A stretch of 64,000 bases of DNA from a virus, in the IMG/VR virus record IMGVR_UViG_3300026488_000015, positions 64,001 to 128,000 of that record. One strand, written 5' to 3'. The stretch's first letter is position 1. Every line of letters begins with the position of its first letter. This document shows, in pieces, positions 89 through 56,503 of this stretch. Position numbers and translations under genes: made by a program. The notes under the pieces are model-generated. The model was not told the origin of the DNA. It did not search any database and saw nothing but the letters and a program-made list of their open reading frames with translations.

Positions 89-3000
89 TTATGCTCCCTT
101 TTCTAGTTTAGCATCTTTGATACTAGTATTATGTGTAGCACCTGCACTCGTTGTAGATGTAGTGTTTTGTATTTGAGGTGTTTTATTCTGTTTTACTTCT
201 GCTCTCGTTTGTTTGTGTGACTCAACGAGTGCTACGACAGCTGGGTCAGGCTTCTTCTCATATTTTGTGAATGCTGTTGCTTTAAGACCAGAATTCTTAA
301 ACATTTCTTGATAAGCTTCATTAGCGGCAGCACCAGTTTCATAAGATACTGGTTGTTTCGTAGTACCTTCTGTGAATGTCTTGCTATCCTTCTTAGTAAT
401 CGTTTGGCCTTCTGAATCGATACTAACACCACCTGATACTGGTGCCGGTGCTGTTCCATCTTTTCTGTATTGTTTCATACCATTATCTCTAATACTTTTT
501 CTGTCAATACCCAAAGGCTCAACATGCCAGGTTTCAGAAGCAACGATAGGTCTCCAAAAACCATATTTTCTGAATAGGTTCGCTTTGATTGCATCATTGG
601 CATCTACCGTCTGAATATCGAATGCTAGACCATAGTTGTGCATTGATTTCCCTGGTGATGCAGCCTTCTTTCCTTTTCGTTTCTTCATATCAGCTTGTTC
701 TTCAAAGCTTCTGAATGCTGAATTAACTTGCATCTTACGACCAGTGATTTCTTTAAATTCCATTGCCATACCTTTAAGGTTATGGAGAACATTTTCATCA
801 AGACCTTCGATGTCGTTGTTTCCGTTGTTAATGAATAATTCTTTGAGTGACATATCATCTGTCGTTCTAACTTGACCGGCATCTGTATAGGTAACTTTCT
901 TAGGTGTGTACTCGACACGACCTGAATAGTTACTCATTACATTAGCACCACCTTCGTTATCAAAAGTAGTGAAGCCTGATATATTATCCCTTTCTGTTTC
1001 TCTGCTTTTAAGAAACATAGCAATCTGGTGAGAAAGACTATCTCTCTTCCCTTCTATTTTAGTTTTCCTTTCTACATAAGTAGCTAAGCTTGACCACTGT
1101 GATAGAGGTATGCTTCTCATTTCTATCAAATCTTTTATTACTAATGGTTTGGCTCCCCAAATACCGGCATTATTAACTATAACAATACCCTCTTTCACTA
1201 AACCGGCAAGAAATTCTTCCATATTTTTATTCTTTAATTTTGATAGTTTATCTAGTTTCGATTTCGATGTTGCCATTACTTTTGTGTATATAGCTAATGA
1301 ACCATCTTCTAGTGCTACTTGTTTTGAATATGTAGCTTTATCTTCAAAATCTGTTCCTGAATCTCTTACTATTGCATCATCAGCACCATTTTTAAGGAAT
1401 TGTTTCTGGATAAATTTCTTTCTGTCTTTTTCTGTTAGGTCTTTACTAAGGGCCTTATATTCTTTAGTCCCAACAGCTCTTCCAGACATTTGTTTCATTA
1501 TACTATGGCTTTTCTTAATTTTTGCATCTTCTTCAGCTAAATTGTTTTGATTGTCTGTAACACCATTAATGATAGCTATCATTTTATCGCCTTCATTAGC
1601 AAATAAACTCTCATCTTTTACTCTATATTTAATATCGTTAATTAACTCAGCTCTTTGGTTCTCATCTAGGTATGTTGTGATATACTCTCTGAATCTTGAT
1701 TTCTTATATACAATACCATCATTTGTATTGTTAGGGTTCACAATATCTGCATCAATCATTGCTTCATAAATATCATCACCACTAGCATCTTTACGAACAG
1801 CATCTAATGTAGCTTTCTTACTCTTATCTTCAAATCTCATAGTAGTTTTTTTAGATGTTATTATACCAGTCTTAGCATTTTTTACTAATTTTGTACCGCT
1901 CGTACCGAATATAGCCATAGCTTCTTCACCATATTGTAATACCGCTGGGTCAGATGCTCCAAATTTTTCTCTTCTCACCATAATAATTTTTAAGAAATCA
2001 TCATTATTACCTTCGATGTAGCTCATAGCTTTGTCGAATTCTTCTAACGAAAGCTCTTCACTCGTTATAATATATTTAACGAAATCTTCCTCTGGTGATG
2101 AACCCCATAACCAAGAAGCCTGTGATGTCCCTAGTGCCGCTATACTTTTAGCTATTACAGCAACTCGTTTCTCGTAATTCGGGCCGAAAATATTTTTCGT
2201 TGCATTTCTGATTTCCACTGCATCTACAGCTAGTAGAGCACCAGTGATTAAACCAGCTGTTAAGACACCACCAATCTTGAATACTGATTTACCTAGACCC
2301 TTTACTCCTTTAAAAGCAGTTTTAAAGAATCCACTCTTAGCCATTTTAGGTTTGAAATGATTTGCTTTGGGTTTAGGTGTACTCCCTTTTTTTATAGTAG
2401 ATTTAGTATCACCAGACATCTTAGTTTTTCTTTTTTGTTCTGTTTCCATTCGTTTTTTGTTGGCTTCTGATTTCTTCTGCTGTTTGTCTTTACTATTTTG
2501 TTGCTGTTGTTTTTTCTTGTCGTTACCTTTTTTATTCTTCTTATCTTTTTTATCAGGCATACAACCACAACCAGACATAACCCCACGACCTTTCCCTTTA
2601 CCTCTTCTTCTACTAGAATTATTTCTTCGTTGGCTTCTATTTCTTTTTCTGTCTCTTTTGGATTGTTTTTTATCATTCTGGCTATTCTTTTTGTCTTTAC
2701 CTGGGCCTTCAGGCATATCCATACTTTTTGAAGAATTCAATAAATTTTTACCAAATACAGCTTTCCAAACCTTGTTAATCATTCTCTTAGCAAATCTTAG
2801 AGCTTTCTTAACCATTATCTTAAATTTTCTGAACATTTTCTTGAATGGAGCCAACAGCTTACCGAACATTTTCTTAACCATCGGACCTATCTTTTTCCAC
2901 AGCTTCGTAGCCAATAGACCTAATCCAGCCATTATCATATCCCATATCGATGTGTCTTCATCATCTTTTATGGCTTTACCATTTTTATCAAATTTTTGTT

Positions 3001-4237
3001 TTTTGTCTTTCTTGCCTTTTCTATCGATTGAAGTATCTTGCTCATCAACCATCTGGTCAGCAATCTTTTCTAGGTTCTCATTAATGCTTTCAGAAAGCTT
3101 AATCATTTTCTTAGAATCATCAGCTGTATAATCATTATCATTTAGAGAATTTTTGATACCCAATGAAGCTCCTAATGAACCTAGCATACCGTATTGCTCT
3201 TCCTTCTTTTCTTGTGTTTCTTTCTGTTTTTTCTCTTTAAGCTTATCAGCTGGAGTCGGGTTCTTTTCTGAATCTTCTTCTGTTTTTTGTCGTTCTTTAT
3301 CGTTAGCTCTAGCTTGTTCTACATCATCGCTTACACCGAAGGCATCAGTAATGTATTGGTTACCTAAGCTAGAAATAAAATCATCCTTAGAAATACTAGA
3401 ATAACCATATTTCTTTCTAATGTCATTGTGCATCTTCATCAAAGCTAATGTTTCATTTTGTACCATATTTCTAGCATCATTTTGTTCATTAATATTATCT
3501 ACTGTGTATGCATTACTAACCAGTGTAACATATTTGTACATATTAACGCTTTTATCGAGAACCATTTTCTGGCCTCTCGTTTCTTGGTCTAATGAATCAG
3601 TAACCTTATCTAATGTATCACCAGAGAATTTTAAAGCAGAAGATTTTACTGTATCTTGTGCTCTCTCCATTAGAGAACCTTTTTCTGATTTCTCTGCTAG
3701 TGAATCTTCTTTCTCTTTGATTTTAGATTGTAGTTTTAGTGTTTTCTTCTCATCGCCAGTAATTTTAGCTACTTCTAGTTCTTCTTCGAGGTCTGATAGT
3801 CTATTCTGGCTTCTCTCTCGTGATTCTCTTGTATTGAATAAAGCACCGATTGATTCTGATGCAAGATTTTTGATAGCATCAAGTGGGCTATCTATCATAT
3901 CAGAAAGTTTTTTGTGTTTCTTCTCTTTTAGATTATCTACTTTTTCTCTATCTGATATAGCCTTATCTAAATCAGAAAGTTTTTCTGGTGTTCCTGATGT
4001 TTCTATGCCGTCTGTTTTTTTCTGTTGTATTGCTACTTTTTTATCGTGTTGTGCTCTAGCAATGAATAAAGTGGTTAATAATTGTTTTGTTTGTGTGAGT
4101 TCAAGCTCAATAGTATCTGAAGGTTGACCTTGTTCTTTTTTCGAGGCTATAGATTTTTCTATTTTAGCCATACTCTTATAAGAATCTTCAAGCCTAGTGT
4201 TAATATCTATTATATTTTGTTGGTCTTGTGCGTTCAT
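89..4237 (-). CDS. Tape measure / baseplate hub-like protein with C-terminal M15-family (VanY-like) peptidoglycan peptidase
   Basis: 1382 aa, coiled-coil and charged N-terminus, two hydrophobic segments; C-terminal SAFRSFEEQ...PGKSMHNYGLAFDI...ETWHVE M15 Zn motifs; next to baseplate and tail genes. Confidence 0.7.
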   Translation of the reverse strand: MNAQDQQNIIDINTRLEDSYKSMAKIEKSIASKKEQGQPSDTIELELTQTKQLLTTLFIARAQHDKKVAIQQKKTDGIETSGTPEKLSDLDKAISDREKVDNLKEKKHKKLSDMIDSPLDAIKNLASESIGALFNTRESRERSQNRLSDLEEELEVAKITGDEKKTLKLQSKIKEKEDSLAEKSEKGSLMERAQDTVKSSALKFSGDTLDKVTDSLDQETRGQKMVLDKSVNMYKYVTLVSNAYTVDNINEQNDARNMVQNETLALMKMHNDIRKKYGYSSISKDDFISSLGNQYITDAFGVSDDVEQARANDKERQKTEEDSEKNPTPADKLKEKKQKETQEKKEEQYGMLGSLGASLGIKNSLNDNDYTADDSKKMIKLSESINENLEKIADQMVDEQDTSIDRKGKKDKKQKFDKNGKAIKDDEDTSIWDMIMAGLGLLATKLWKKIGPMVKKMFGKLLAPFKKMFRKFKIMVKKALRFAKRMINKVWKAVFGKNLLNSSKSMDMPEGPGKDKKNSQNDKKQSKRDRKRNRSQRRNNSSRRRGKGKGRGVMSGCGCMPDKKDKKNKKGNDKKKQQQQNSKDKQQKKSEANKKRMETEQKRKTKMSGDTKSTIKKGSTPKPKANHFKPKMAKSGFFKTAFKGVKGLGKSVFKIGGVLTAGLITGALLAVDAVEIRNATKNIFGPNYEKRVAVIAKSIAALGTSQASWLWGSSPEEDFVKYIITSEELSLEEFDKAMSYIEGNNDDFLKIIMVRREKFGASDPAVLQYGEEAMAIFGTSGTKLVKNAKTGIITSKKTTMRFEDKSKKATLDAVRKDASGDDIYEAMIDADIVNPNNTNDGIVYKKSRFREYITTYLDENQRAELINDIKYRVKDESLFANEGDKMIAIINGVTDNQNNLAEEDAKIKKSHSIMKQMSGRAVGTKEYKALSKDLTEKDRKKFIQKQFLKNGADDAIVRDSGTDFEDKATYSKQVALEDGSLAIYTKVMATSKSKLDKLSKLKNKNMEEFLAGLVKEGIVIVNNAGIWGAKPLVIKDLIEMRSIPLSQWSSLATYVERKTKIEGKRDSLSHQIAMFLKSRETERDNISGFTTFDNEGGANVMSNYSGRVEYTPKKVTYTDAGQVRTTDDMSLKELFINNGNNDIEGLDENVLHNLKGMAMEFKEITGRKMQVNSAFRSFEEQADMKKRKGKKAASPGKSMHNYGLAFDIQTVDANDAIKANLFRKYGFWRPIVASETWHVEPLGIDRKSIRDNGMKQYRKDGTAPAPVSGGVSIDSEGQTITKKDSKTFTEGTTKQPVSYETGAAANEAYQEMFKNSGLKATAFTKYEKKPDPAVVALVESHKQTRAEVKQNKTPQIQNTTSTTSAGATHNTSIKDAKLEKGA

Positions 4238-6227: not shown

Positions 6228-6249
6228 AATATACCTCTTTTAGAAGTAT

Positions 6250-6678
6250 TTATACTTTAAACGATAATGTTTCTTTGGATATTTCTAATAATGAAGTTTT
6301 CCTTTCTAGTACGAGTTTTTGTAAATGAACTAATGAAGCTAATTCTAATGTGAGTTTAGTTTTATAAGCGGATTCTTTCTCTTTAGGGGTACTGAAGTAA
6401 ATTACATATAATCCTTGTTCAGGACGAGGCTCACCATAAGCATCTACTTCAAAAATTAAAATGTATTCATCTTGTTTAAAATAAGGAGAACTCTTCATCC
6501 TAGATTTAAGATTTTCTAAAGTTTTCTTAAATATGTTAGTGCTTGTTCTTTCATCGAATTTGATATATGATACTGAACCTTCATCTTTATTTTGTTTGGA
6601 TTCGTATGCAACTGCATTTCTGTAAGAGTAGTTTGGTAAGTATTTGTTGATTTCTTTAGTGAGAGTGAATGAAGTCAT
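6250..6678 (-). CDS. Hypothetical protein with its own early-type promoter
   Basis: 142 aa ORF with RBS, TGTTATAAT promoter at about 6700-6720. Confidence 0.55.
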   Translation of the reverse strand: MTSFTLTKEINKYLPNYSYRNAVAYESKQNKDEGSVSYIKFDERTSTNIFKKTLENLKSRMKSSPYFKQDEYILIFEVDAYGEPRPEQGLYVIYFSTPKEKESAYKTKLTLELASLVHLQKLVLERKTSLLEISKETLSFKV

Positions 6679-13367: not shown

Positions 13368-13395
13368 TTTGATTCTCCTTTTAGAGATATTTATA

Positions 13396-18248: not shown

Positions 18249-18266
18249 TTTATAAATATTTATAAA
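18249..18266. promoter_or_regulatory. Palindromic bidirectional T4-type late promoter
   Basis: TTTATAAATATTTATAAA is a perfect palindrome with TATAAATA on both strands, between divergent genes. Confidence 0.7.
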
Positions 18267-22668: not shown

Positions 22669-22693
22669 ATGGTTCTCCTAACTTTATTGATAT

Positions 22694-22975
22694 TTATAGG
22701 AGATAATGAGGGTGGAATTCTATGAGTATTTTTTTGAATGAGGGGAATTTTATTAGGTTATGCAATGATGTGTATATGTATTCTCCAGTGAATACGCCTT
22801 CGTTTGAGTATTCTTTAGTGTGGAATGAACCCCAAGAGTCTTCGTTTAAGTAGTTTTTAAGGATATTTTCGTATGAGTGGTATTTTATTTCATTCTGCCA
22901 TTTTATAGAGAAAATATGATGGACTCTTCCTTCCAAATCAATCACGAAAGGAAAACCAAAAGAGTCTTTATTCAT
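22694..22975 (-). CDS. Hypothetical protein, C-terminal PHYLL tag
   Basis: ORF track; motif family. Confidence 0.55.
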   Translation of the reverse strand: MNKDSFGFPFVIDLEGRVHHIFSIKWQNEIKYHSYENILKNYLNEDSWGSFHTKEYSNEGVFTGEYIYTSLHNLIKFPSFKKILIEFHPHYLL

Positions 22976-35841: not shown

Positions 35842-36069
35842 CTAACTAAACCTAACTAAACCAACTAAGTTGATTAAACTGAATACTACATTCATTATAA
35901 GCAACTGTCTATTATCATTATTATAAGCATAAATTGACCATAATATAGAACTCGTGATGAATAATGTATAGCACAACATAAACAAGTCTAAATTTAACGC
36001 CATTAACATTGCTGCTGTAACACCCGTTGTAGTTGCTGAATTTGTAATAAATGTTTCTGATATTCTCAT
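35842..36069 (-). CDS. Small three-helix membrane protein
   Basis: Hydrophobic helices; early promoter upstream. Confidence 0.55.
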   Translation of the reverse strand: MRISETFITNSATTTGVTAAMLMALNLDLFMLCYTLFITSSILWSIYAYNNDNRQLLIMNVVFSLINLVGLVRFS

Positions 36070-36245
36070 AATCTTTCCTTCTTCTCTTTATATACAGTAT
36101 TATAACATAACATAGCTTAAAGGCTACTTAAATTTGGAGAAATAAAAAGAATTTTGAAATTCTTTTAGTAGAACTTGGTTTTTACTAAAGTTTTACCTCT
36201 AACTTTTATAGATACTACTAAGATACAAAACAAACAAGTATCTAA

Positions 36246-36282
36246 CCTCAAGGAAGAGGATGTTTTACACAACGGAGGTGTA
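36246..36282 (+). promoter_or_regulatory. Putative CsrA-binding 5' leader: two hairpins with ANGGA loops, the second covering the RBS
   Basis: CCTC-AAGGAA-GAGG (36246-36259) and TACAC-AACGGAG-GTGTA (36266-36282), directly before the flagellin ATG. Confidence 0.65.
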
Positions 36283-36284
36283 TT

Positions 36285-37109
36285 ATGGGATTTACAATCA
36301 ACACAAACAATAGCGCAAACTTCGCACTATTATATGGTAGACAAACACAACAAAAAATAGATAGTTCTTTAGAAAAACTATCAACTGGTCTTAGAATTAA
36401 CAGAGCAGCAGATGATGCAGCAGGAATGGCTATTGCTAATCAGTTAAGAAGCCAATCACAAGGTTTAATTCAAGGTAACAAAAATGCACAAGATGCTATT
36501 GGTCTTGTTAAAATAGCAGATGGCGCAATGGATGAGTATCAAAAAATTCTCGTGACTGCTAGAGATAAATCAGTTCAGGCAGCAAGTGATACGAATTCAC
36601 CTGAAGCAAGAGCAGTACTCGAAGAGGAAGTTAAGCAATTACTTCAACAAGCAGATGATATTGCCACTACGACATCATTCAATGGTATTAATCTTTTAGA
36701 TGGTACATTTACTAGCAAGAAATTTCAAGTAGGTTCAGAATCTGGCCAAACTATTAGTATGAGTATAGCTAATACTGATATTGCTTCTCAAAATATTGCT
36801 GACGCTGATATTGATTTAACTACTCAAGCAGGTGCTGATGCAGCAATCGTTTCATTGGATGCAGCGATAAAAAGTATTGATGCCGTTAGAAGTGGAATAG
36901 GTTCGACTCAAAATGCACTAGAAAGTAGAGTCCGTGTTAATGAGGCAACTGCCGCAAATGTTATGGCCGCAGAGAGCGCGATTCGTGAAGTTGATTATGC
37001 TGCAGAACAAACAGCATTAAATACAAACACAATCAAGTTACAAGCTAATACATTCGCTTTAGGTAAAGCATTAGAGAACCAACAAATGATTCTTAGTCTG
37101 CTTAGATAG
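36285..37109 (+). CDS. Flagellin (short; D0/D1 only)
   Basis: MGFTINTN, SLEKLSTGLRINRAADDAAGMAIA, NAQDAIGLVKIADGAMDE, TSFNGINLLDG, FQVG, RSGIGSTQN.LE, AESAIREVDYAAE, ILSLLR. Confidence 0.95.
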   Translation: MGFTINTNNSANFALLYGRQTQQKIDSSLEKLSTGLRINRAADDAAGMAIANQLRSQSQGLIQGNKNAQDAIGLVKIADGAMDEYQKILVTARDKSVQAASDTNSPEARAVLEEEVKQLLQQADDIATTTSFNGINLLDGTFTSKKFQVGSESGQTISMSIANTDIASQNIADADIDLTTQAGADAAIVSLDAAIKSIDAVRSGIGSTQNALESRVRVNEATAANVMAAESAIREVDYAAEQTALNTNTIKLQANTFALGKALENQQMILSLLR

Positions 37110-37461
37110 GGTTTAGGAAAACATCAACTATGATGATAACCAATCCATAATAGTGTAGAGACTCTTCTTTGGTCTCTGCAATATTACCTTTACCAATAAA
37201 CAATCCAATATCATTTAAAATATCAAATAGACCTAGACCTTCAGGTTTAGTATAATCAATCATATCAGACATCAAACGAATACTTTCAAGCATCTTAGAT
37301 GTAGTTTCAAATTTAATTTTTTGTTGGGATAATGCTGGTTCTTTTTTCTTTTTTTCTGTTTCTATCTTTATAAGTACAAGAGTTTTTTTCTTTAATAAAG
37401 TATAAAATGTTTTTAAGAATTCTTCTTTACCTAAGACAGCATTTTGTTCGTAAGGGTTCAT
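37102..37461 (-). CDS. Putative FliS-like flagellin export chaperone (divergent)
   Basis: 119 aa helical protein; N-terminal PYEQNAV like the FliS AYxQN motif; IRLMSDMIDY..EG..L, GN, VIIIV pattern aligns with the FliS helices; convergent with flagellin. Confidence 0.5.
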   Translation of the reverse strand: MNPYEQNAVLGKEEFLKTFYTLLKKKTLVLIKIETEKKKKEPALSQQKIKFETTSKMLESIRLMSDMIDYTKPEGLGLFDILNDIGLFIGKGNIAETKEESLHYYGLVIIIVDVFLNPI

Positions 37462-41813: not shown

Positions 41814-42318
41814 ATTGTACCTCTTTTATTGTTATTTATATTTCAATCTTAGGTTTTTTGTTTAGTGTAAGTTCCCATAAAGAAAGTGAATGAGAATAAT
41901 CTTCAATATGCTGTAAAGAAGCATATTCTTCAACACATTCTTCAGATAAGATAAGTTCTTCGGAACTCATAAATAGCACTAATTTTTTTGGAAATTGCTC
42001 AAAGTTCTGCACTGATTTTAATACTTTTTTGTAATCTTTAATGAACTCAAAAATATCATCTTCTATACTTAACTCTGTAGCTGTATAAAAAGTAAAATCT
42101 TCATCTAAAGCATCTTCAAAAGTGGTATCACCTGAATCTGTTTGAAACGATTTGTCTTCTAAATCTACGAAACGAAAATGCTCATTACAATAAAAAACTA
42201 CTTCATCTATCATATCCGATTTGTTTGTTAATAACTCTATCATTTTTTGGCTTAACATATTATTTTCCTTATCTCTCTTTATATGTAATATTATAACATA
42301 AAGAACCTTTAGGCCTTC

Positions 42319-56236: not shown

Positions 56237-56251
56237 CTCGTTTAATAATAT

Positions 56252-56503
56252 TTATAAGAATAAGTGAGGTGCCAGTTCTTTAGCTTCTTCTAAAGATTTA
56301 AAATCGTGTTTAATGTTGTTGGATTCCATTTTGTAGTTTTCTATCAGCTCGTAATCGCCTGAAGCACTATGGATGACTAAAACATCATCTAAGGTATATC
56401 GTTCCGTGTCTTCATCGTATCCGAGGACTTCGGCAAAGAATCTGAATTCGGCTCTATCGTCCTCTTTGTAATCCACATAAACGATAGCACCTATCCCATA
56501 CAT
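56252..56503 (-). CDS. Hypothetical protein, C-terminal PHLFL tag
   Basis: Motif family. Confidence 0.5.
   Translation of the reverse strand: MYGIGAIVYVDYKEDDRAEFRFFAEVLGYDEDTERYTLDDVLVIHSASGDYELIENYKMESNNIKHDFKSLEEAKELAPHLFL

Follow-up and report, generated by a model that had tools for sequence, protein, structure and literature searches.

The flagellin gene of a T4-like phage from a hydrothermal vent is preceded by two adjacent RNA hairpins that display GGA motifs in their loops. We read this pair, at a probability of about one half, as a genuine CsrA-type translational operator through which the host would gate synthesis of the phage flagellin—a protein that is most likely exported, to be assembled into the host filament or secreted through it. 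The CsrA–FliW–flagellin switch is a bacterial checkpoint that matches flagellin synthesis to flagellin export, and the narrower prediction that CsrA binds the phage leader is, taken by itself, a probable one.

The window analysed here is a 64-kb stretch (bases 64001-128000) of a 146.5-kb IMG/VR virus record that is estimated to be 68% complete and comes from a hydrothermal-vent metagenome. Its G+C content is 33%, its minus strand holds nearly all genes, and it bears the marks of a T4-like myovirus: a tail sheath, a sheath stabiliser, a large terminase, and an RnlA-type RNA ligase. Megablast against deposited phages gave no match, and tblastn returned only distant flagellins with less than 60% identity. 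The features of the leader and of the two genes next to it are given below in window coordinates.

36246..36259, + strand: hairpin 1 (HP1), CCTC (36246-49) / AAGGAA / GAGG (36256-59), predicted CsrA site 1; seen in the sequence and by RNAfold
36266..36282, + strand: hairpin 2 (HP2), TACAC (36266-70) / AACGGAG / GTGTA (36278-82), predicted CsrA site 2; seen in the sequence and by RNAfold
36257..36260, + strand: a "third" AGGA, inside the paired 3' arm of HP1; absent from relatives
36209..36244, + strand: upstream stem of 8 bp (TAGATACT / AGTATCTA) closing a loop of 20 nt; part of the minimum-energy fold given by RNAfold
36285..37109, + strand: flagellin gene, 274 aa, D0/D1 only (no middle domain); by Pfam
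37102..37461, − strand: candidate gene for a diverged FliS-like chaperone, 119 aa; convergent with the flagellin gene, whose stop it overlaps by 8 nt

Hairpins of the flagellin leader in the window and in related phages

The sequence-only reading of this region had described two GGA-loop hairpins, the second containing the Shine-Dalgarno (SD) sequence; both are there as described, and the gene that they precede is a real flagellin gene of 274 aa. The stem of HP1 has 4 bp and that of HP2 has 5 bp. The SD, GGAGG at 36274-78, runs across the loop and stem of HP2 and lies 6 nt before the flagellin ATG (36285), and the GGA motifs of the two hairpins stand 22 nt apart. When the leader is folded with RNAfold, both hairpins appear in the minimum-energy and centroid structures, with a stability that is not above that of shuffled controls (z = -0.3 to -1.3); since these z-scores are ordinary, folding energy alone is no signal. 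The same reading had placed a third AGGA between the hairpins. An AGGA does occur, but within the 3' arm of HP1, and because it is paired there and is not conserved in relatives it is probably incidental. Codon 2 of the flagellin is also GGA, among these phages in the window phage only. The upstream 8-bp stem precedes HP1 in the window, and in the relatives, too, a hairpin precedes HP1, one that is non-homologous.

How often such structures arise by chance can be gauged from the window itself, where loops with at least 4 closing pairs hold about 9-10% of the GGA sites. Tandem pairs of GGA-loop hairpins number 4 on both strands of the 64-kb window, and shuffles average 0.54 per strand; such pairs are rare, their count is near the shuffle level, and the leader observation by itself is suggestive at best. 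Across the whole 146.5-kb record there are 8 ANGGA-loop hairpins with at least 2 G-C pairs, and the flagellin leader holds the sole tandem among these. A sponge-like cluster of GGA hairpins (CsrB/RsmZ type) was not found in the 146.5-kb record, the leader having two sites, and a search of the leader with Rfam gave no family at gathering score and chance-level matches only. HP2 alone is weak evidence, because any SD contains GGA; what raises the leader above chance is that it is conserved, with compensatory stem changes, in related phages.

We compared the window leader with five other leaders of its family (L002, L004, L005, L006, and L013). The covariation test covers four lineages: the window, L004, L005 together with L006, and L013. 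In all four, the GGA of HP1 lies at -31 to -33 and that of HP2 (the SD) at -9 to -11 from the ATG, 21-23 nt apart. The stems are as follows.

HP1 stems: window CCTC/GAGG; L004 TTCTC/GAGAA; L005/L006 TGGAA/TTCCA; L013 GGAC/GTCC
HP2 stems: window TACAC/GTGTA; L004 TATAAA/TTTATA; L005/L006 TACAC/GTGTA; L013 AGAC/GTCT

The four lineages thus show four HP1 stems and three HP2 stems around kept A(A)GGA(A/T) loops, the loop of HP1 reading AAGGA(A/T). RNAalifold, run on an ungapped MAFFT alignment, recovered HP2 and missed HP1 because of a register shift of 1-2 nt between lineages; the stem arms were then compared directly. In this direct comparison own-arm pairing is 4/4 for each hairpin, and the cross-lineage mean is 1.42/4 for HP1 and 2.25/4 for HP2; the observed total is matched by 1/24 arm permutations for HP1 and by 2/24 for HP2. 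L002 is the exception—it is without HP1, its SD hairpin is weak and missing from the minimum-energy fold, and a sigma-28-like -10 element stands immediately before that hairpin. As the four lineages fall in both subclades of the family (described below), the module is ancestral to the family and has been kept by compensatory change. The comparison supports the view that a leader with CsrA-operator architecture has been kept under selection across this family of phage flagellins.

Comparison with cellular flagellin leaders

In Campylobacter jejuni, the flaA mRNA has a 45-nt 5'UTR with a pair of stem-loops (SL1, SL2), which carry ANGGA in both loops at a spacing of 21 nt, the second motif lying over the ribosome binding site (RBS) (PMC4894983). 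C. jejuni CsrA recognizes the motif (C/A)A(A/T)GGA, shows a Kd of about 50 nM in binding the flaA leader, and represses translation; mutations of the flaA GGA motifs abolish the CsrA effect, FliW antagonises CsrA, and the flaA leader titrates CsrA (PMC4894983). In architecture the window leader agrees with this system item by item: it has two adjacent ANGGA-loop hairpins with the second over the RBS, its GGA spacing is 22 nt where that of flaA is 21, GGA forms codon 2 in both, the hexaloop is AAGGAA-like, HP1 reads CAAGGA, which fits the CsrA motif, and in both cases relatives preserve the structure through compensatory changes. The differences are also clear. The window gene is a phage gene, its predicted leader is longer, and HP1 does not stand at the guessed 5' end; the window is without the sigma-28 CGAT -10 and has a late-promoter-like element, and its HP2 is a heptaloop with ACGGA. 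Finally, CsrA binding is proven for flaA, whereas here it is predicted from sequence. CsrA likewise has two sites on the leader of Bacillus subtilis hag, of which the first lies in the loop of an upstream hairpin and the second at the SD, with FliW as the protein antagonist; the two-site layout is the same as in the window, but hag is a chromosomal gene of a different phylum and of different sequence. The earlier proposal that the phage leader is wired into the CsrA circuit draws support from the operator architecture, its conservation, and the match to flaA—a case made by comparison.

Flagellin leaders of Campylobacterales offer a broader comparison. A hairpin built on the core GC-A(N)GGA-N-GC is present in 38 of 40 distinct leaders of the sigma-28 type; it mostly starts 15-22 nt after the CGAT -10 (at 30 nt in one case); the hairpin is missing from five host leaders that lack CGAT and were read by eye as sigma-54-type. 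When 36 host and 4 phage hairpins are aligned, 79% of cells pair versus 57% in shuffles (0/500), and the same alignment gives a covariation score of 0.53 versus 0.19, with slid controls at most 0.2. Host SL1 and the phage module both present an AAGGAN hairpin upstream of the SD GGA, with covarying stems. They differ in that the host hairpin has a near-invariant GC...GC closing core, which the phage module is without; the distance to the SD GGA is 25-55 nt for the host hairpin, and another hairpin often lies in between, against 21-23 nt for the phage hairpin; and the phage module follows CGAT, where CGAT exists, by 65-77 nt, compared with 15-22 nt in the host. A covariance model for which 35 host SL1 hairpins served as the input scored the window HP1 at 9.9 bits (E 7.7), not significant and the second-best match in the window, and it scored the HP1 of L013 at 16.2 bits (E 0.22); a 20-nt model of this kind holds little information. 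The low score of the window HP1 follows from its lack of the conserved G-C closing pairs of the host. The phage module is a variant of the host SL1 hairpin class and not a copy of it.

An operator of this type would also call for the matching proteins in the host. Absence of csrA or fliW from the host had been named as grounds for giving up the proposal; relatives of the likely host have both, with one csrA and two fliW copies in three of the four Campylobacterales genomes that hold the nearest cellular flagellins. Within the host family of the nearest flagellin, csrA occurs in 36 of 41 genomes, mostly in open frames of 76-99 aa (core 53 positions). The length of these frames, which are open frames and not called genes, would presumably fit the C-terminal extension of a FliW-controlled CsrA. 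The record of the window phage gave no Pfam match to CsrA, FliW, or canonical FliS, and CsrA and FliW are absent from three virus records of the flagellin family and from a fourth with a more distant flagellin. A host among the Campylobacterales is likely, as judged only by flagellin kinship and promoter style.

The flagellin gene, its predicted promoters and its FliS-like neighbour

The window protein matches Pfam Flagellin_N at 3.1e-42 (144.4 bits) and Flagellin_C at 1.5e-14 (54.5 bits), both above the curated cut-offs. Its N- and C-terminal helical domains are intact and both of its termini are canonical, the N-terminus reading MGFTINTN. It belongs to a large, metagenomic family, with roughly 50 members besides it, that are mostly 274 or 269 aa long and are 51-85% identical to it. 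Maximum-likelihood analysis placed 20 family members in a clade of their own (100/100 support), separate from every sampled Campylobacterales flagellin; the clade has two subclades, with protein identity down to about 51%, and some of its members come from IMG/VR virus records, one of 155 kb that is complete and has terminal repeats, one of 172 kb, and one of 290 kb. In subclade B (L005, L006, and L013) the hairpins have been kept, though the N-terminus has diverged there and reads MFNLGQAQ. Searched against 401 Campylobacterales genomes, the flagellin gave a best cellular match with 46-48% identity over the full length, and a scan of a genome collection found the nearest relatives over the N-terminus in Campylobacterales/Sulfurimonadaceae MAGs, four of which share the MGFTINTN start; when metagenomes were scanned with the alignment of the family, most matches were generic flagellins. 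The large terminase of the window has no match in two other flagellin-bearing phages (G005 and G006) and a weak match in a third (G007). Since by terminase the carriers are not close kin, the flagellin gene would move among phages as a module, and it appears to have been exchanged among different large phages.

Some members of the wider family have unusual gene structures. In L004 the flagellin (1666-3693) is split: exon 1 (MSFSIQTN...RINRAADD) ends near 1797 and the frame resumes at ~3001 (AAGLAIANQLR...), with an insert of ~1.2 kb that holds a 290-aa HNH-like open reading frame (1838-2710) and sits inside the most conserved flagellin motif. The insert looks like an intron with a homing endonuclease; Rfam found no group I or II intron in it. 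The "short" members of 227-234 aa (P0034, P0037, P0045, P0047, P0050, and P0053) are probably exon-2 open reading frames of split flagellins. A more distant flagellin with 34% identity, L127 (G008:C1:38814-39227), comes from a virus record of 147 kb. The 468-aa open frame that holds it contains a single in-frame TAG, which may reflect stop-codon recoding or a split gene.

The 119-aa neighbour of the window flagellin has no Pfam match of its own. An exhaustive search of a library of 1.8 billion proteins gave a family of 31 representatives, and Pfam FliS is matched by 10 of 26 members of this family, at best with 3.9e-6. Run against the PDB, the family profile finds Helicobacter pylori FliS (3iqc) at E 0.0094. 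The AlphaFold (AF2) model is a four-helix bundle with pLDDT 91, and the top Foldseek matches are FliS of B. subtilis, Aquifex, and H. pylori (TM 0.60-0.72, E at least 0.08), the four-helix bundle being a common fold. Taken together, we lean towards a FliS-like chaperone. A FliS-like homologue also adjoins the flagellin in G005 and G007, phages of 155 kb and 290 kb, which makes three lineages. Homologues located beside a phage flagellin are:

L002, 3779-4261, − strand: FliS-like homologue
G007:C1:29204-29401: FliS-like homologue

Two further inverted repeats lie near the flagellin start. A perfect 10-bp repeat, AAAAGAATTT-tg-AAATTCTTTT, occupies 36145-36166 in the divergent intergenic region between the flagellin and a minus-strand gene with its start at 36069; an operator and a bidirectional terminator are both possible functions. 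A 12-pair hairpin at 36307-36333, within flagellin codons 8-16, was flagged as terminator-like on the minus strand. It may block antisense read-through that comes from the FliS-like operon, or on the plus strand it may influence early elongation.

Whether the hairpins lie inside the mRNA depends on the promoter, for which the window offers elements of two kinds.

36186..36190, + strand: TAAAG, sigma-28 -35-like element and possible remnant; the TAAAGTTTT word, common to host flagellin promoters and L004
36207..36222, + strand: late-promoter-like TATAGATA-ctac-TAAG, at -78, 70 nt before the flagellin ATG
6239-6254, 13380-13395, 22683-22698, 41825-41840, 56241-56256, − strand: late promoters, examples from the window
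18251-18266, + strand: late promoter, example from the window

In host flagellin promoters and in L004, the TAAAGTTTT word stands before a CGAT -10. No sigma-28 CGAT -10 is present upstream of the window flagellin, where the tAGATAc that follows TAAAGTTTT is 3 nt too far downstream, and a sigma-70 promoter scan of the + strand of the window intergenic region gave no match. A CGAT -10 of the sigma-28 type lies at -99 to -108 in L004, L005, L006, and L013, and at -33 in L002; the -35-like word before it, TAAG/TAAAG, has the host spacing in L002 and L005 and is two bases further off in L004. In L004, ~four tandem copies of TTAAAGTTTTC, a sigma-28 -35-like word, occur at 1505-1560, just upstream of the flagellin CGAT -10.

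In the window phage, late promoters have the sequence TATAAATA-N4-TAAA and precede the start codon by 15-26 nt, and the relaxed pattern TATARATA-N4-YAAR occurs 13 times where 0.5 are expected; the flagellin copy is one of two G-variants. An exact T4-type late promoter was not found before the flagellin: TATAGATA has one mismatch to TATAAATA and is 70 nt from the ATG, while its extended part, N4-YAAR, agrees with the pattern. An exact TATAAATA is present in L004, at a similar distance from the ATG, ~-74 by eye. The flagellin gene may thus have shifted partly or wholly to phage late control, if the element functions as a late promoter, and the 70-nt leader that it has kept would be unlike those of the other late genes of the window phage. 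Either of the predicted promoters, of the sigma-28 type or late, would place both hairpins inside the mRNA.

Readings of the leader and what they would mean

If the hairpins form an operator, the mechanism would run as follows. A host CsrA dimer would grip HP1 at its AAGGAA loop and HP2 at its SD GGA, 22 nt apart, and so block ribosome entry; export of flagellin would free host FliW, FliW would capture CsrA, and repression would lift. Synthesis of phage flagellin would thereby be coupled to an export-competent host flagellum, and the flagellin, helped by its FliS-like chaperone, would be exported and either built into the host filament or secreted through it, a role confined to the cytoplasm being less likely. 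In this scheme we infer who the host is, that the transcript includes HP1, that CsrA binds, and what becomes of the protein. An exported flagellin is favoured because the terminal domains are intact, a FliS-like chaperone is encoded next to it, relatives have sigma-28-type promoters, and the leader has the form of a CsrA operator. The suggestion in the sequence-only reading that the module is regulatory rather than structural finds no support here: the intact flagellin termini, the FliS-like neighbour, and the sigma-28-type promoters of relatives point to a secreted or assembled flagellin.

A different purpose for the same binding event has to be weighed. CsrA may bind the leader mainly so that the phage can disturb its host, through titration of CsrA by the mRNA, sequestration of FliW by the flagellin, or both; sequestered FliW would free CsrA to shut host flagellin and other CsrA targets. 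There is precedent in C. jejuni, where the flaA leader itself titrates CsrA, and the optimal spacing of CsrA sites is quoted as 18 nt (PMC4894983); the phage spacing of 21-23 nt is near this optimum and that of the sampled host leaders is 25-55 nt, so the compact phage leader could compete well for CsrA. In C. jejuni, moreover, FliS requires an intact flagellin C-terminus and FliW requires the N-terminal subdomain (PMC5466977), and the window protein keeps the canonical MGFTINTN. Nevertheless, two sites per leader amount to one CsrA dimer per mRNA, and this, together with the absence of a multi-hairpin sponge from the 146.5-kb record, argues against titration as the main role. A FliS-like chaperone and the sigma-28 promoters of relatives suit an exported filament protein and not a cytoplasmic decoy, and subclade B retains its hairpins despite its diverged N-terminus. 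As the main purpose of the module, such interference is unlikely; as a second role, the leader may titrate CsrA or the protein may titrate FliW.

The hairpins may also be generic mRNA elements that tune ribosome access, protect against decay, or bind another RNA-binding factor, with GGA being no more than SD-like sequence. The GGA of HP2 is that of the SD, both hairpins have short stems of ordinary energy, the host SL1 model gives the window HP1 no significant score, and Rfam offers no family—all of which would fit. Yet HP1 is not an SD, and its loop has stayed AAGGA(A/T) while its stem was replaced three times; the fixed spacing of 21-23 nt between GGA loops corresponds to the requirement of a CsrA dimer (PMC4894983). 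The hairpin class is, furthermore, nearly universal on sigma-28 flagellin leaders and absent from the five that were assigned by eye to the sigma-54 type, and the other late genes of the phage have leaders of 15-26 nt, with no such hairpins noticed in the flanks shown. A homologue of RegB, which cleaves at GGAG, was not found in the record, itself 68% complete, in a search whose control gave no signal. We consider a generic role rather unlikely.

Also improbable is an mRNA that serves as a weapon in both of its capacities, with a compact leader of high affinity soaking up host CsrA, the protein capturing FliW, and the CsrA regulon reprogrammed as a result. That the hairpins are functionless, two short inverted repeats that happen to surround GGA motifs, looks very unlikely: ~10% of window GGA sites lie in such loops, tandem pairs arise ~once per 128 kb of shuffled sequence, and the folding z-scores are insignificant, but the same positions carry different stems in four lineages, and the only tandem among the record's G-C-containing ANGGA-loop hairpins falls exactly on the flagellin leader.

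We return to the reading of the leader as a host-gated operator, for which the closest parallel in outcome is found in Enterobacter. There a prophage encodes the flagellin FliC-P together with TldR, an RNA-guided repressor of host fliC, and the control is transcriptional; this temperate Enterobacter phage is the only case described so far of flagellar remodelling by a phage (PMC13418256). Both systems have a phage-borne flagellin that replaces or competes with that of the host, although remodelling is predicted in our case, and they differ in that the window phage is T4-like and has a minimal D0/D1 flagellin, a FliS-like partner, and a post-transcriptional leader of the CsrA type. In our reading the module serves to remodel the flagellum at a host-compatible dose, and is comparable to FliC-P in its outcome and different in its mechanism.

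In the literature searched we came across no vent phage with a reported flagellin and no phage gene with a reported CsrA operator, such as the CsrA-type operator proposed here on a phage-borne flagellin–FliS module. That the operator has been kept on this module among large phages whose terminases show little or no recognisable similarity suggests that host machinery handles the phage flagellin as its own. Were the dual-function weapon true, it would be the first viral RNA decoy for CsrA, borne by a flagellin–FliS module mobile among unrelated large phages, and a virus would be reprogramming the motility and metabolism of a vent chemolithoautotroph during infection. If the host-gated operator is true, flagellar remodelling by phages would extend to T4-like and jumbo phages of deep-sea Campylobacterota, and would there be under post-transcriptional control.
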